From UHGV virus genome UHGV-0093038: 18,258 bases of DNA. One strand, written 5' to 3'. A model generated the notes under the pieces. It was not told where the DNA came from and made no database searches. It saw only the letters and a list, made by a program, of their open reading frames with translations. This stretch comes from a virus. Shown in pieces: positions 1 through 4,554 of this stretch. Both the position numbers and the translations under genes were made by a program. Each line of letters opens with the position of its first letter. The stretch's first letter is position 1.

Positions 1-462
1 GCTGTACGTGGAAACCATGAGCAAATGATGATTGATGGCTTATCAGAGCGTGGAAACGTCAATCACTGGCTGTTTAATGGCGGTGGCTGGTTCTTTAATC
101 TCGATTACGACAAAGAAATTCTGGCTAAAGCTCTTGCCCATAAAGCAGATGAACTTCCGTTAATCATCGAACTGGTGAGTGAAGGTAAAAAATATGTCAT
201 CTGCCACGCCGATTATCCTTGTGACGAATACGAATTTGGAAAGCCAGTTGATCATCAGCAGGTAATCTGGAACCGCGAACGAATCAGCAACTCACAAGAC
301 GGGATCGTGAAAGAAATCAAAGGAGCTGACACGTTCATCTTTGGTCATACGCCAGCAGTGAAACCACTCAAGTTTGCCAACCAGATGTATATCGATACCG
401 GCGCAGTGTTCTGCGGAAACCTCACATTGATTCAGGTACAGGGAGAAGGCGCGTGGGCATAA
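1..462 (+). CDS. Ser/Thr protein phosphatase, lambda PPase-like (C-terminal part; 5' end lies outside the window)
   Basis: Frame 1 is open from base 1 with no stop before the ATG at 25, so the gene is cut by the window edge. The translation [13 protein letters not shown]...FIFGHTP carries the metallophosphatase GNHE and GHTP motifs and matches from memory the C-terminal two-thirds of phage lambda protein phosphatase (orf221). Confidence 0.85.
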
Positions 463-941
463 GAGAACTAAACCTCACCAAAGAGCAGCACGAGTGGCTG
501 AATGGCTGGCTTGAACTGTGGGGCGCATGGGTTTATTCAGGTCGTCTGGAAAAGCGCATGAGCAGCGTAATAGCTAAGTTCATGGAGAGCGTAGAGCCGG
601 GAAGAGTTATGACAAGGCCAATGTGTAATGATGATGATGGAATGTTGATTTCTCAGGTCGTCGATTCCGTCATGTACATTGACAAGAAAGCCTTTGGTAT
701 CCTCCTCAGCTACTACGCCCACGGCTCTTCCAAGCACGCCATTGCATCTTACTATCATCGCGTCGCAAGACCTCGCAAGATGTTATGCCGGGGCGGCGGG
801 CGCATTCAAAAACCATCGCTCGCAACCTGTCGACGGGAAGTTGACGAAATCCTCAATGCCTCGTTGTTTATGATTTACCCGGTTCTGGATAGTGCGTTTA
901 AAAACCGGAAACGTGTAGAGAAAATTAAACATGTAGCATAG
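453..941 (+). CDS. Q: Late-gene antiterminator Q, phage-82 type (Phage_antitermQ family), not lambda-Q type
   Basis: 162-aa ORF directly after the phosphatase gene and before the lysis cassette, the canonical Q position. Motifs [19 protein letters not shown] and LLSYYAHG resemble the phage 82 Q family as I recall it. GTG start at 453 overlaps the phosphatase stop and is preceded by GGGAGAAGG. Confidence 0.7.
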
Positions 942-947
942 AACGTG

Positions 948-976
948 TTGACATCATTGAGCAAATGAGCAACACT
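948..976 (+). promoter_or_regulatory. Candidate Q-dependent late promoter (pR'-like): TTGACA -35 hexamer 7 bp after the Q stop, weak -10
   Basis: Perfect TTGACA at 948-953. The best -10 candidates at 17-18 bp spacing (AACACT/ACACTA) are poor, so the call rests mainly on position relative to Q and the downstream terminator. Confidence 0.3.
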
Positions 977-985
977 ATTCGCATA

Positions 986-1028
986 AGCTGCCGTTAGTGA
1001 CTCTTAAGTTGCAACGGTGGCTTTTTTT
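986..1028 (+). terminator. Candidate tR'-like intrinsic terminator of the late leader
   Basis: AGCTGCCGTT (986-995) can pair with AACGGTGGCT (1013-1022) as a 10-bp stem with two G-U wobbles and a 17-nt loop, followed by T7 (1022-1028). It lies about 40 bp downstream of the TTGACA element. Confidence 0.4.
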
Positions 1029-1032
1029 ATTT

Positions 1033-1107
1033 GGGTCAGTCGTATAAAGGTCATTACGGAAGGCTGTTAACCTTCTTATCGTGGTTCGAGTCCACGCTGT
1101 CCCGCCA
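1033..1107 (+). tRNA. tRNA-like gene, anticodon GUU (Asn), with imperfect acceptor and D stems (possibly degenerate)
   Basis: 75-nt hand-folded cloverleaf: acceptor GGGTCAG/CTGTCCC with one T-T mismatch, perfect anticodon stem GAAGG/CCTTC, loop CTGTTAA (U33, GUU, A37), perfect T stem CGTGG/CCACG with loop TTCGAGT, discriminator G and encoded CCA. The D stem is only 3 bp. Confidence 0.5.
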
Positions 1108-1112
1108 AATAT

Positions 1113-1188
1113 GCTGGTTTAGCTCCAATGGTAGAGCAGTCGCCTTGTAAGCGAATGGGTAGCGGTTCAAGTCCGTTAACCAGCACCA
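1113..1188 (+). tRNA. tRNA-Thr (anticodon UGU)
   Basis: 76-nt cloverleaf: perfect 7-bp acceptor GCTGGTT/AACCAGC, U8, perfect D stem GCTC/GAGC with GG in the D loop, anticodon loop CTTGTAA (UGU), 5-nt variable loop, T arm AGCGG-TTCAAGT-CCGTT, discriminator A and encoded CCA. Confidence 0.85.
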
Positions 1189-1408
1189 TAACTGAGCCGT
1201 AGCCACTGGCTATCCTGAATTCATCAGTGATAGTTACGCTGCGGCATTCTACGCATGACCTTCGTGAAAGCGGGTGGCAAGAGGCTGCGCTAACAACCTC
1301 ATGCCGTTTTGCCCGTGCATATCGGTCACGAACAAATCTGATTACTAAACACAGTAGCCTGGATTTGTTCTATCAGTAATCGACCTTATTCCTAATTAAA
1401 TAGAGCAA

Positions 1409-1436
1409 ATCCCCTTATTGGGGGTAAGACATGAAG
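1409..1436 (+). promoter_or_regulatory. S translation-initiation control region (sdi-type stem-loop over the SD, dual start motif Met1-Lys2-Met3)
   Basis: CCCC-TTATT-GGGGG hairpin (1411-1424) overlaps the SD GGGGGTAAG immediately before ATG-AAG-ATG (1431-1439). The arrangement is as I recall it upstream of lambda S, where it sets the S107 (antiholin) to S105 (holin) ratio. Confidence 0.55.
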
Positions 1437-1754
1437 ATGCCAGAAAAACATGACCTGTTAGCCGCCATTCTCGCGGCAAAGGAACAAGGCATCGGGGCAA
1501 TCCTTGCGTTTGCAATGGCGTACCTTCGCGGCAGATATAATGGCGGTGCGTTTACAAAAACAGTAATCGACGCAACGATGTGCGCCATTATCGCCTGGTT
1601 CATTCGTGACCTTCTCGACTTCGCTGGACTAAGTAGCAATCTCGCTTATATAACGAGCGTGTTCATCGGCTACATCGGTACTGACTCGATTGGTTCGCTT
1701 ATCAAACGCTTCGCTGCTAAAAAAGCCGGAGTAGAAGATGGTGGAAATCAATAA
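1431..1754 (+). CDS. S: Holin/antiholin S (class I holin; S107 from 1431, S105 from the ATG at 1437)
   Basis: 107-aa product [20 protein letters not shown]... is essentially identical to lambda S from memory, with three predicted TM segments and a charged C-terminus. Confidence 0.96.
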
Positions 1755-2214
1755 TCAACGTAAGGCGTTCCTCGATATGCTGGCGTGGTCAGAGGGAACT
1801 GATAACGGACGGCAGAAAACCAGAAATCATGGTTATGACGTCATTGTTGGCGGAGAGCTATTTACTGATTACTCCGATCACCCTCGCAAACTTGTCACGC
1901 TAAACCCCAAACTCAAATCAACAGCAGCCGGACGTTACCAGCTTCTTTCCCGTTGGTGGGATGCCTATCGTAAGCAGCTTGGCCTGAAAGACTTCTCTCC
2001 GAAAAGCCAGGACGCTGTGGCATTGCAGCAGATTAAAGAGCGTGGCGCTTTACCGATGATTGATCGCGGTGATATTCGTCAGGCAATTGACCGTTGCAGC
2101 AATATCTGGGCTTCACTGCCGGGCGCTGGTTATGGTCAGTTCGAGCATAAGGCTGACAGCCTGATTGCAAAATTCAAAGAAGCAGGCGGAACGGTCAGAG
2201 AGATTGAGGTATGA
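1738..2214 (+). CDS. R: Endolysin R (lytic transglycosylase)
   Basis: 158-aa product [24 protein letters not shown]... is near-identical to lambda R from memory. Start overlaps the 3' end of S, as in lambda. Confidence 0.96.
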
Positions 2215-2648
2215 GCAGAGTAACCGCGATTATCTCCGCTCTGGTTATCTGCATCATCGTCTGCCTGTCATGGGCTGTTAATCATTACCGTGATAACGCC
2301 ATCGCCTACAAAGAACAGCGCGATAAAGCCACGTACATCATCGCTGATATGCAGAAGCGTCAACGTGATGTAGCAGAACTCGACGCCAGATACACAAAGG
2401 AGCTTGCTGATGCTAACGCGACTATCGAAAGTCTCCGTGCTGATGTTTCTGCTGGTCGTAAGCGCCTGCAAGTCGCCGCCACCTGTGCAAAGTCAACGAC
2501 CGGAGCCAGCAGCATGGGCGATGGAGAAAGCCCAAGACTTACAGCAGATGCTGAACTCAATTATTACCGTCTCCGAAGTGGAATCGACAAGATAACCGCG
2601 CAGGTTAACTACCTGCAGGAGTACATCAGGACGCAATGCCTGAAATAA
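2211..2648 (+). CDS. Rz: Rz i-spanin (inner-membrane spanin subunit)
   Basis: 145-aa product with N-terminal TM helix [31 protein letters not shown] identical to lambda Rz over the first ~31 residues, then a divergent coiled-coil periplasmic domain. ATGA overlap with the R stop. Confidence 0.9.
2410..2595 (+). CDS. Rz1: Rz1 o-spanin (outer-membrane lipoprotein) embedded in the +1 frame of Rz
   Basis: ORF lies entirely inside Rz in another frame. ATG at 2410 is preceded by AAGGAG (2397-2402). Product [27 protein letters not shown]... has a signal peptide with lipobox VSAC and a Pro-rich mature region, the same architecture as lambda Rz1. The ORF track begins it at a TTG at 2404. Confidence 0.8.
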
Positions 2649-2850: not shown

Positions 2851-3363
2851 ATGAATATCGTGCCACTTAACTACAAAGGTGAAATTGTCAGTTTCAACAC
2901 TGATGGTTGGATCAACGTCACAGGTGTTGCTGAGAGATTTGGGAAACGCATTGATAACTGGATGCGTTTGGCAGAAACGCTTGAATACGTTCGTGCTTTA
3001 GACGAAGCGTTGACCGGGAAAGAATCTCAAATTTTACATCCCTCACAATCGAGGTATGTAAAAACCAGCAAGGCACGAAAGGACAGGGGTGGTGGTACGT
3101 GGCTACATCCAGTTGCATTTGCCCGTTGGTGTGATGCTCGTTTTGCTGTGTGGTGCGACCTGCACATTGATAGTCTGCTTCGCGGTGAACTGACTGAGCA
3201 GCAGAAATATGAGCAAGCATGTCGCATTCGCGATGACCGGAAATCAAAAGCCAGCAATGGGGCAAGAGAGATGGCTCGCTGGCGATGGGATAAGCCGGTT
3301 ATTGAAGCAAATGTCGAGTACTGGCGCGAGCAACTGCAGTTGACTCTCGATATCGCGTGCTGA
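2851..3363 (+). CDS. KilA-N / APSES-type DNA-binding domain protein (putative), accessory gene
   Basis: 170-aa ORF with the N-terminal pattern GEIVSFNTDGWINVTGVAERFGKRIDNWMRLAETLEYVRALDEAL, which resembles the KilA-N consensus (DGY-N-T..C.A.GKR...W.R....E.I..L) as I recall it. Sits between the lysis and packaging modules where lambdoid phages carry accessory genes. Confidence 0.6.
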   Translation: MNIVPLNYKGEIVSFNTDGWINVTGVAERFGKRIDNWMRLAETLEYVRALDEALTGKESQILHPSQSRYVKTSKARKDRGGGTWLHPVAFARWCDARFAVWCDLHIDSLLRGELTEQQKYEQACRIRDDRKSKASNGAREMARWRWDKPVIEANVEYWREQLQLTLDIAC

Positions 3364-3652
3364 TGGCAAACGCAAAACTGCGTTATCGAAAAAATCAAAG
3401 CATTACGAGAACTGAGCAACGGCTATCCATTACAAAGCCCATCTACGGGTGGGCTTGATAATGAAACCGGAATTTATTCTGGGCAACCAATTAACGGCAG
3501 TACAGCGAAACAACCCAAGCCAGTAAGCGGGGAAATAACACTGGCAGCCACTGAAAGATGAACCTCCTGCCTTATGGCAAAAAAGATTCTTTGTGGTGGC
3601 GGACTGATGGAAAGACATCCTAATCAAGCAACCACTCCACAGGGGCATAATT

Positions 3653-4027
3653 ATGAACGACCAGCAAATCGAAAAAGAAATCGTTGAGAAAGGCAAAACG
3701 GCACCGCGTGTAACACCCGAGAAAATTGAAGGCCTCATTTGCAGTGAGCATTTTTTCACTGCTGCGCAGGGTGACCACCAGGCTAAAGAAGATGACCTTA
3801 TTTATAATCCGGAGCCTTATGTCGAAGCCACCCCTGATGCTCTGCACCTTCTCACTTTCTGCGTATTGGTACTGAAGAATGGCTTCACCGTTACCGGAGA
3901 GAGTGCCTGTGCGAGCCCGGAAAACTTTGATGCAGAAATTGGTCGGAAGATTGCCCGGCAGAATGCTGTAAACAAAATCTGGATGCTCGAAGGTTACTTG
4001 CTGAAGCAGAAGCTAAGCGAACAGTAG
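3653..4027 (+). CDS. N4 gp49 / Sf6 gp66-family phage protein, function unknown
   Basis: 124-aa ORF with an AGGGG RBS 8 nt upstream. The segment LTFCVLVLKNGFTVTGESACASPENFDAEIGRKIARQNAVNKIWMLEGY resembles my recollection of the Phage_gp49_66 family. Confidence 0.55.
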   Translation: MNDQQIEKEIVEKGKTAPRVTPEKIEGLICSEHFFTAAQGDHQAKEDDLIYNPEPYVEATPDALHLLTFCVLVLKNGFTVTGESACASPENFDAEIGRKIARQNAVNKIWMLEGYLLKQKLSEQ

Positions 4028-4083
4028 TTATTACAAAAGCCATTCCCTACAGAGTGGCTTTGATAATGGCTTATACCCTACAC

Positions 4084-4109
4084 GGGATAACTTAACTGAT
4101 ATCCCTTTT
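4084..4109 (+). terminator. Weak hairpin plus T4 between the gp49-like gene and the next ORF (possible attenuating terminator)
   Basis: GGGATA (4084-4089) pairs with TATCCC (4100-4105) around a 10-nt loop, followed by TTTT (4106-4109). AT-rich and short, so weak. Confidence 0.25.
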
Positions 4110-4130
4110 AACGGATAAACGGAGCCAACA

Positions 4131-4373
4131 ATGGCAGAGATTATTCCCATGACTGAAGAACAGAAATTCCAGTTAGAGATTTACAAACTGGTCATGAACC
4201 AGAACGCAGCCGCAGAAGAAGCATTTCAGTTCATTGGCACTGACGAGCTGAAGCTTGAGCTATTTAAAATTCACTTCCAGTCAGGCGGCGCTAATTCAGA
4301 TATCACGACCCGCACTATCGAAGCAGTGCGTAAATCGAAGGAAGCGTTAGACCTGTTCACTACCGGAGCATGA
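4131..4373 (+). CDS. Hypothetical small acidic protein (80 aa)
   Basis: ORF with GGAG 7 nt upstream of the ATG and a plausible helical, acidic product. No motif I can name. Confidence 0.5.
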   Translation: MAEIIPMTEEQKFQLEIYKLVMNQNAAAEEAFQFIGTDELKLELFKIHFQSGGANSDITTRTIEAVRKSKEALDLFTTGA

Positions 4374-4374
4374 T

Positions 4375-4554
4375 GTGAGCCGCGTAATCAATTTTGGTAA
4401 GGAGAAGAAATTCCCAATTACTCAAGAGCTATACGAGCGGCTGGAAAGCGTCATTCATGATTACGATGGTGAAATCAGTTTATGTGAGGCGATTGGCACA
4501 CTCGAATTGCTGAAGCAGTCACTGATTGAAGGCGCGAAAGAGTCCTCAGCCTGA
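4375..4554 (+). CDS. Hypothetical small protein (59 aa), GTG start, translationally coupled to the upstream ORF; absent from the ORF track, apparently because it is just under its length cutoff
   Basis: GTG at 4375 sits inside the junction ATGTGA (the upstream stop TGA is 4371-4373), with GGAG 6 nt upstream. Open frame runs to TGA at 4552-4554. Product VSRVINFGKEKKFPITQELYERLESVIHDYDGEISLCEAIGTLELLKQSLIEGAKESSA. It fills the otherwise empty gap before terS. Confidence 0.35.
   Translation: MSRVINFGKEKKFPITQELYERLESVIHDYDGEISLCEAIGTLELLKQSLIEGAKESSA

Follow-up and report, generated by a model that had tools for sequence, protein, structure and literature searches.

Between the gene for the late antiterminator Q and the lysis genes of the virus genome UHGV-0093038 lie two sequences that fold as tRNAs, one of them with apparent flaws in its cloverleaf. 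The locus raises the question of whether both are working tRNA genes, how they would be expressed and what they would do for a phage. ARAGORN called exactly two tRNA genes in the window (the whole 18,258-base stretch of DNA analysed here), both on the + strand, and reproduced to the base the coordinates given in a preliminary description of this DNA:

1033..1107, + strand: tRNA-Asn(GUU), 75 nt, with encoded CCA, G73, U4.U69, U13.U22 and a 4-nt variable loop (ARAGORN, Rfam)
1108..1112, + strand: inter-tRNA spacer AATAT, 5 nt (direct sequence reading)
1113..1188, + strand: tRNA-Thr(UGU), 76 nt, with encoded CCA, G1-C72, C2-G71, G27.A43 and U28-A42 (ARAGORN, Rfam)

Both exceed the gathering score of 29 bits of the Rfam family RF00005, tRNA-Asn with 55.3 bits (E 9.6e-10) and tRNA-Thr with 61.5 bits (E 2e-11). 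Beyond the two tRNAs, no Rfam family rose above threshold anywhere in the window. Called by ARAGORN and by the covariance model alike, the two sequences are confirmed as real tRNA genes.

In the Rfam alignment tRNA-Asn has two non-standard pairs, of which U4.U69 lies in the acceptor stem and U13.U22 closes the D stem; they correspond to the T-T acceptor mismatch and short D stem noticed earlier. Its U8, A14, G18-G19 and T-loop TTCGA are all intact. tRNA-Thr had been taken for a textbook example; it is indeed a real tRNA gene, but it is not free of irregularity, since the same alignment marks a non-standard G27.A43 pair at the top of its anticodon stem. The identity elements of E. coli AsnRS are G34, U35, U36 and G73, and those of E. 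coli ThrRS are G1-C72, C2-G71, G35 and U36; the full set is present in the respective window tRNA. The locus very probably holds a functional two-tRNA cassette in a P22-like/lambdoid phage with the Q-pR′-tR′ module of phage 21, and the cassette is placed at the 5′ end of this phage's late operon.

Late control region and proposed expression

The tRNA genes are located, as had been proposed, between Q with its terminator tR′ and the lysis cassette, which is borne out by the Pfam match of Q, the folded terminator and the holin and Rz genes. The features of this region are as follows:

453..941, + strand: late-gene antiterminator Q, phage 21 type (Pfam PF06530 Phage_antitermQ, 87.4 bits)
948..983, + strand: late promoter pR′ (annotation transferred from phage 21 record OL657228, sequence read directly)
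948-953, + strand: −35 element of pR′, TTGACA
956-971, + strand: two-part Q-binding element (QBE), ATTGAGCA+AATGAGCA
971-976, + strand: −10 element of pR′, with transcription start at about 983
984..990, + strand: putative sigma-dependent pause element for loading of Q onto RNA polymerase (transferred from the phage 21 annotation)
985..1032, + strand: leader terminator tR′, with the hairpin at 985-1023 and the U-run at 1022-1032
1189..1430, + strand: untranslated stretch of the late transcript from tRNA-Thr to the holin gene, with a mosaic junction near 1250
1431-1754, + strand: S holin, lambda type (Pfam Phage_holin_3_1)
1738-2214, + strand: open reading frame in the position of R in the Sf6 annotation, with no Pfam match
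2211-2648, + strand: Rz (Pfam Phage_lysis)

Coordinates of the control elements were transferred from OL657228 (window = locus − 561), whose annotation of the −35 element, QBE, −10 element, start, pause element and terminator goes back to experiments and gives literature references. The Q protein of the window is identical to that of phage 21 at 162 of 162 residues, and window positions 940-1250 are 99.0% identical to phage 21. A Q21 protein, a two-part binding element and an intrinsic leader terminator, as in a phage 21-type late leader, are all found here. The tR′ hairpin comprises 17 bp, with interruptions, and has a folding energy of −20.2 kcal/mol (z = −6.1), a stability reached by 0 of 200 shuffles. 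It is followed by a U7-A-U3 run, UUUUUUUAUUU (1022-1032), whose last base is 1032, while tRNA-Asn begins at 1033. The earlier remark that the T-run of the terminator adjoins the first tRNA is thus exact, and in OL657228 tRNA-Asn likewise starts at the base directly after the terminator feature. A leader terminator is annotated in both phage 21 and Sf6, the Sf6 record adding "similar to phage 21". A consensus promoter and terminator scan of 800-1500 found no site, and it missed pR′ and tR′ themselves, because the −10 element is weak and the hairpin loop rule of the scan is narrow.

With the lysis cassette (1431..2648, + strand) the protein genes of the late operon begin. On its 3′ side Pfam matches identify a KilA-N protein, an Sf6 gene 66-family protein, a DUF2560 protein and a small terminase of the Sf6 type, and the remainder of the window is a P22-like virion module. 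CUS-3 is the top match to the whole window, with 69% coverage, and coverage of 80% was reached by no record. To judge by this P22-like module and the limited coverage by CUS-3, the window is an ordinary mosaic P22-like/lambdoid phage or prophage.

Transcription from pR′ would begin at about 983 and, without Q, stop at tR′ (985-1032), one base before tRNA-Asn. Polymerase modified by Q21 would read through and produce one transcript comprising the leader, tRNA-Asn, tRNA-Thr, the lysis genes and the virion genes; for this phage we infer Q-dependent read-through of tR′ from the sequence that it shares with phage 21, where this region was studied by experiment. Cleavage at 1032/1033 and 1112/1113 would fall to host RNase P, which in E. 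coli prefers U at position −1; trimming by the host on the 3′ side would uncover the encoded CCA ends, and the products would be charged by the host AsnRS and ThrRS. Both tRNAs would thereby sustain late-protein synthesis. tRNA-Thr(UGU) would supply a decoder of ACA, encoded just once in E. coli, and, being resistant to cleavage, would stand in for the host copy once this has been destroyed by a Toprim nuclease such as P2 Old. tRNA-Asn(GUU) would add Asn decoding, and may have a stand-in role of the same kind.

Phage 21 has the same Q, QBE, promoter, leader terminator, tRNA-Asn and tRNA-Thr sequences as the window, in the same order (Q, pR′, tR′, Asn, 5-nt spacer, Thr, lysis). The spacer differs by one base, AACAT in phage 21 and Sf6 against AATAT in the window. 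Past about 1250 the two phages diverge: the window continues with an S-R-Rz cassette of the lambda/Sf6 type, phage 21 with a pinholin/SAR-endolysin cassette, and the P22-like virion genes of the window, closest to CUS-3 at 69% coverage, are unlike those of phage 21. In Stx phages such as 933W, tRNAs lie at a similar site, between the late promoter and terminator and the first late genes. The Stx set ileZ-argN-argO consists of rare-codon decoders, one for Ile (CAU-derived) and two for Arg (UCU/UCG-type), whose anticodons differ from those of the window and whose sequences are unrelated; only Asn(GTT) and Thr(TGT) were called here, in keeping with the earlier view that this is another set.

The preliminary description did not recognise the pair, which is base for base the long-annotated one of phage 21. 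It is annotated in phage 21 (OL657228), Sf6 (AF547987), SfI, BTP1, SPN9CC and many others. A search with the 500 bases that surround the tRNAs gave matches in 176 phage records, and tRNA-Asn and tRNA-Thr are annotated in many of these. Of 5426 complete E. coli genomes, 369 contain a 171-base core, nearly always on the chromosome. The SfI genome paper describes tandem Asn(GUU)/Thr(UGU) genes 3′ of Q, found also in Sf6, ST64T, PS3 and phage 21 (PMC3636060), and the phage L paper discusses the same tRNA site (PMC8022706). Given these annotations and discussions, the pair is the classical phage 21/Sf6 pair and already known. As a discovery it carries little weight, its genes, position and control being already in GenBank and in papers that reach back to the work on phage 21 and Sf6. 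P22 has no tRNAs at this site (PMC8022706), and the cassette is therefore dispensable in some hosts.

The anticodon stem of tRNA-Thr and the supply of codons

The window tRNA-Thr is identical to that of phage 21, which is the tRNA-Thr21 assayed against P2 Old (PMC12445682). Lambda-infected cells die because Old cleaves host tRNA-Thr(UGU) at a paired CNG motif (28-30/40-42), the cuts falling after positions 28 and 40; phage Thr(UGU) tRNAs rescue the affected cells (PMC12445682). tRNA-Thr21 both protects and resists cleavage through C28U/G42A together with a shortened anticodon stem. The two changes are required together, alteration of the CNG motif alone being insufficient, and the anticodon dependence of the rescue implies that tRNA-Thr21 decodes ACA (PMC12445682). 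Host thrU has a full 5-bp anticodon stem and CNG on both strands. The window gene combines the UGU anticodon with U28-A42, which replaces the host C28-G42, and with G27.A43, which shortens the stem. On the strength of the identical sequence, G27.A43 with U28-A42 is the published basis of P2 Old resistance. In the protection experiments the tRNA was expressed from a plasmid (PMC12445682), whereas the window copy lies in a late leader.

Among the Thr(UGU) genes found 3′ of the Asn gene, 103 of 113 are of the phage type, and U28/A42 and G27.A43 are invariant in all 103. These copies reduce to 19 distinct sequences, in every one of which G27.A43 is unpaired and U28-A42 invariant. G1-C72 and C2-G71 are likewise invariant across the 19, and double changes occur at four pairs, those in the acceptor stem being 3:70, 5:68 and 6:67. 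The covariation score is 0.145, compared with 0.077 in shuffles, with 0 of 500 shuffles as high. The supposedly perfect Thr gene is thus the one that carries the functionally important irregularity.

Codon usage was compared between 19 late genes of the window (5222 codons) and 40 annotated K-12 core genes (15,080 codons), the latter being a sample of genes and not a genome:

ACA share of Thr codons: late genes 26.0%, host sample 10.5% (odds ratio 3.0, p = 5e-10)
Asn residues: late genes 4.77%, host sample 3.53% (p = 1e-4)
AAT per 1000 codons: late genes 23.2, host sample 12.5
AAC share of Asn codons: late genes 51%, host sample 64.5% (p = 5.5e-4)

Only one codon of the late genes is more enriched than ACA, so that the enrichment suggested as a check in the earlier description was found for Thr. 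For Asn the share of AAC is lower in the phage, and AAT and total Asn, the latter 1.35 times the host level, are higher. A single GUU tRNA reads both AAC and AAT. E. coli has one tRNA gene for Thr(UGU) and four for Asn. Codon supply thus fits tRNA-Thr well and tRNA-Asn only loosely.

These figures bear on the alternative that both tRNAs are kept purely for the ACA and Asn usage of the late genes, nuclease resistance being incidental, which we regard as possible but rather unlikely. It draws on the ACA and total Asn values above and on SfI, in which ACA stands at 17.3% against 7.1% in the host (PMC3636060). Related arrays add Arg(UCU), a decoder of the rare AGA codon, and in the coat gene of phage L 24 of 25 Asn codons are AAC (PMC8022706). 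For SfI, however, no Asn bias was found by its authors, who left the significance of the Asn gene unclear (PMC3636060). E. coli has four tRNA-Asn genes, and in the window AAC is not enriched. Enrichment equal to that of ACA is seen for CTT, TCA, GCT and AAG, codons for which the phage carries no tRNA. Codon supplementation also does not account for G27.A43 and U28-A42 of tRNA-Thr remaining invariant while the acceptor stem drifts, nor for the fact that precisely these features confer resistance to Old.

Cut-site determinants and a possible counter-defence role of tRNA-Asn

A second nuclease, AriB of the PARIS system, targets Lys(UUU), Thr(UGU) and Asn(GUU), Lys(UUU) being the primary target. 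It cuts between positions 40 and 41, with U39 and position 41 as determinants, and is neutralised by the tRNA-Lys(UUU)/Thr(UGU)/Asn(GUU) set of phage T5 (PMC12409363). Positions 36-40 and 41 of the host, window and T5 tRNAs are given below, with a slash at the cut site:

Host thrU: UAAUC/A
Host asnT: UAAUC/C
Window Thr: UAAGC/G
Window Asn: UAACC/U
T5 Thr: UAAGC/A
T5 Asn: UAAGU/U
T5 Lys: UAAAC/C

The position numbering holds, because the T5 Lys pattern reproduces Mut1 and Mut2 (U39A/A41C) of the published work (PMC12409363). Both window tRNAs belong to targeted isoacceptors and, in this plain sequence comparison with the host tRNAs, are substituted at U39 and 41. No published AriB test of the two window tRNA sequences was found in the literature. 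With respect to Old, the window tRNA-Asn lacks the CNG motif (A28/U42), which host asnT has, but it retains a full 5-bp anticodon stem, so that only one of the two changes of tRNA-Thr21 is present.

A tentative reading of these substitutions is that the Asn-Thr pair may be a compact cassette against Toprim nucleases instead of a codon accessory, with tRNA-Asn as a cleavage-resistant replacement like tRNA-Thr21; we consider this possible without favouring it. Thr(UGU) is the main target of Old, and AriB attacks both Thr(UGU) and Asn(GUU). In both phage tRNAs the determinants of the cut sites, 28:42, 39 and 41, are substituted. The T5 set has the same Thr and Asn anticodons, and the two tRNAs of the window resemble the T5 variants in replacing U39 and N41 beside the cut site. 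T5 nevertheless differs in several respects: it carries Lys(UUU), which is missing from the window cassette and thus speaks against a counter-defence role of tRNA-Asn; its tRNA genes have no homology to those of the window beyond general tRNA similarity; and they are scattered in a large early-region cluster, unlike the late leader pair. Also against such a role, the anticodon stem of tRNA-Asn is not shortened, and a CNG change alone does not suffice for Old (PMC12445682). Moreover, CNG is restored in 14 of 126 related Asn copies, and the Asn tRNA of P1 looks sensitive.

If the counter-defence reading of tRNA-Asn were true, a nuclease-resistant stand-in would explain the retention of the Asn gene without a codon bias, the repeated pairing of Asn with Thr in lambdoid, P1-like and N4-like phages, and a position of the cassette that lets it fire with the late genes. 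The conserved U4.U69 could then be part of nuclease evasion, or it could be a neutral passenger. Resistance of tRNA-Asn would move the cassette, which about 7% of complete E. coli genomes contain, from 'codon helper' to 'counter-defence module'.

Pairs with the same two anticodons, in the order Asn-then-Thr and closely spaced, occur in P1, N4-like phages and CMS-2020a, outside any Q-controlled leader. Their Asn gene is of another lineage (GATGGTG...CACCATC, with a perfect acceptor stem), and the idea that the P1/N4-like pairs are the same cassette was rejected for Asn on account of this different sequence lineage. In P1 the CNG motif of Thr and the UAAUC/A of Asn are both retained, and from their sequences the two tRNAs look nuclease-sensitive.

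Q dependence, mosaicism and conservation of tRNA-Asn

By analogy with lambda, pR′ is likely constitutive. As intrinsic terminators always let some polymerase through, a small amount of the tRNAs should be made from prophages even in the lysogen, and the pair is a prophage element in the 369 E. coli genomes. It might accordingly be the lysogen that the tRNAs mainly serve, their transcription being independent of Q and coming from a leaky tR′ or a promoter that has escaped recognition. The phage L paper left open whether the tRNAs at this site are freed by cleavage of the late mRNA or have a promoter of their own (PMC8022706), and no published expression data for the cassette in BTP1 or other carriers were found in the literature. 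There is, however, no room for such a promoter, because the terminator U-run adjoins +1 of tRNA-Asn, and this junction is kept behind different leader hairpins, at least three unrelated ones ending in the same TTTTTTATTT directly before Asn +1. The scan of 800-1500 also gave no promoter-like site, a weak argument since pR′ escaped it too. Q-independent expression is thus improbable, and expression with the late operon remains the preferred reading.

The edges of the cassette are mosaic. Homology of HK446, Kapi1 and mEp506 to the window begins at 1023, inside the U-run; the phage 21 match ends at 1250, and those of Sf6, HK446 and Kapi1 run on to 1440. On its left side the mobile unit is bounded by the terminator U-run. 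The Thr gene has recombined with host thrU-glyT in L116 and JLK-2012. Such junctions might suggest that the genes matter chiefly as RNA or DNA architecture, RNase P cuts detaching the Q-loading leader or the tRNA genes being recombination hot spots. This is very improbable, since a purely architectural role would not keep anticodons, identity elements and tertiary bases unchanged, and a plasmid-borne Thr tRNA works on its own (PMC12445682).

The suspicion that the Asn gene may be degenerate is contradicted by its conservation. The gene is 100% identical in phage 21, Sf6, JLK-2012 and ST64T. Copies were collected from IMG/VR contigs and phage records by an exact D-arm motif (n = 124); the invariance of positions 10-27, including U13.U22, is by construction, as the search motif covered these positions. 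The copy of the window is matched exactly by 88 of the 124, and U4.U69 is kept in 116 of the 124 independent copies, the others comprising two with a wobble pair (U.G, G.U), three intact genes with U.C and three disrupted ones. G73 occurs together with the GUU anticodon in 119 of the 124. Compensatory double substitutions were found at pairs 5:68, 6:67, 7:66, 28:42 and 29:41, and the covariation score of 0.150 (0.060 in shuffles) was equalled by 0 of 500 shuffles, with slid partners at 0.05 or less. Pairing holds in 90% of cells, compared with 33-53% in slid controls. Taken together with the intact remainder of the molecule, U4.U69 is an old feature, tolerated or selected, of a structurally constrained tRNA. 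The supposedly flawed Asn gene is the one under clear structural selection.

A decaying or non-functional tRNA-like remnant, as U4.U69 and U13.U22, a single-sequence fold no stabler than shuffles (z = −1.7) and the lack of a role in the SfI paper (PMC3636060) might suggest, is hardly credible and already largely refuted by a score nearly twice the Rfam threshold, by identity across phages with differing flanks, by the five compensatory pairs and the share of paired cells, by the retention of G73, GUU, CCA and the bases of tertiary contacts, and by the ST64T and JLK-2012 types, in which the Thr gene is altered and the Asn gene stays identical. The folding z-score is −1.7 for both tRNAs, and such scores were set aside as uninformative for tRNAs.

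In ST64T the second gene gave no ARAGORN call. The idea that it has simply decayed was dropped, as it still scores 42 bits in Rfam; since, in addition, its equivalent in phage L has been called Leu(UAA) (PMC8022706), it is described here only as divergent. Expanded arrays are found in JLK-2012 (Asn, Thr, Gly) and in Klebsiella phage Mulock (Asn, Phe, Thr, Arg).

Junctions and location of the tRNA cassette

The tRNA cassette is flanked by mosaic junctions at window positions 1023 and about 1250. Several phages carry different Q/leader modules, and the sequence they have in common with the window begins only at position 1023, within the terminator U-run. At the other edge, identity to phage 21 ends near position 1250, where lambda-like sequence 5′ of the holin gene S starts. 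In E. coli genomes, 6 of the 393 matches to the cassette are located on plasmids and not on chromosomes; these six could be phage-plasmids.

Exchange and divergence of the second tRNA gene

Sequence comparison indicates that host tRNA is captured via recombination within the phage Thr gene in an IMG/VR contig (L116), in JLK-2012 (L003 489-642) and in the locus L016. The Thr gene of the IMG/VR contig is phage-type at its 5′ end (26/26 positions) and matches E. coli thrU at its 3′ end (50/50). A Gly(UCC) gene with 74/75 identity to host glyT lies 3 bases past this Thr gene; tyrU and the spacers are absent. JLK-2012-type Thr copies, of which 9 were seen, additionally carry G42U/U43C. These changes disrupt the 27:43 and 28:42 pairs, with loss of the 3′ CNG of the paired cleavage motif of P2 Old, and would represent either decay or re-acquired Old-type resistance.

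In ST64T, the gene 3′ of Asn (L004 489-557) is a shortened, diverged tRNA-like sequence with a counterpart in phage L. It obtained an Rfam score of 42.1 bits and no tRNA call from ARAGORN; the phage L counterpart has been named Leu(UAA) (PMC8022706). The adjoining ST64T Asn is 100% identical to that of the window.

Enlarged arrays and Asn-Thr pairs in other phages

The same site holds bigger arrays of Asn, Phe(GAA), Thr and Arg(UCU) in Klebsiella phage Mulock (L005 401-720) and in the loci L072, L096 and L100, some of which also include Gly(UCC). The Asn variant of these arrays shows three compensatory pair changes, retains the acceptor-stem mismatch U4.U69 and has the paired CNG motif restored.

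Asn(GUU) is also found directly 5′ of Thr(UGU) in P1 (L007 525-678), an N4-like phage (L008 437-686) and CMS-2020a (L006 261-507). However, their Asn belongs to another lineage than the window Asn, with a perfect acceptor stem. Since these unrelated phages share the gene order but use a different Asn lineage, the pairing of the two anticodons suggests convergent selection.

Other ORFs of the window

Three products encoded after the lysis cassette and ahead of the terminase genes gave Pfam matches:

2851-3363, KilA-N domain protein
3653-4027, N4 gp49 / Sf6 gene 66-family protein
4131-4373, DUF2560 protein

A 59-aa ORF in this interval (2851-4554) has no Pfam match. Pfam searches at E <= 0.001 were also empty for the incomplete ORF with which the window starts (1-462) and for ORF 1738-2214. 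Synteny with Sf6 would make the former NinI phosphatase (Sf6 gene 58) and the latter R endolysin (Sf6 gene 62).
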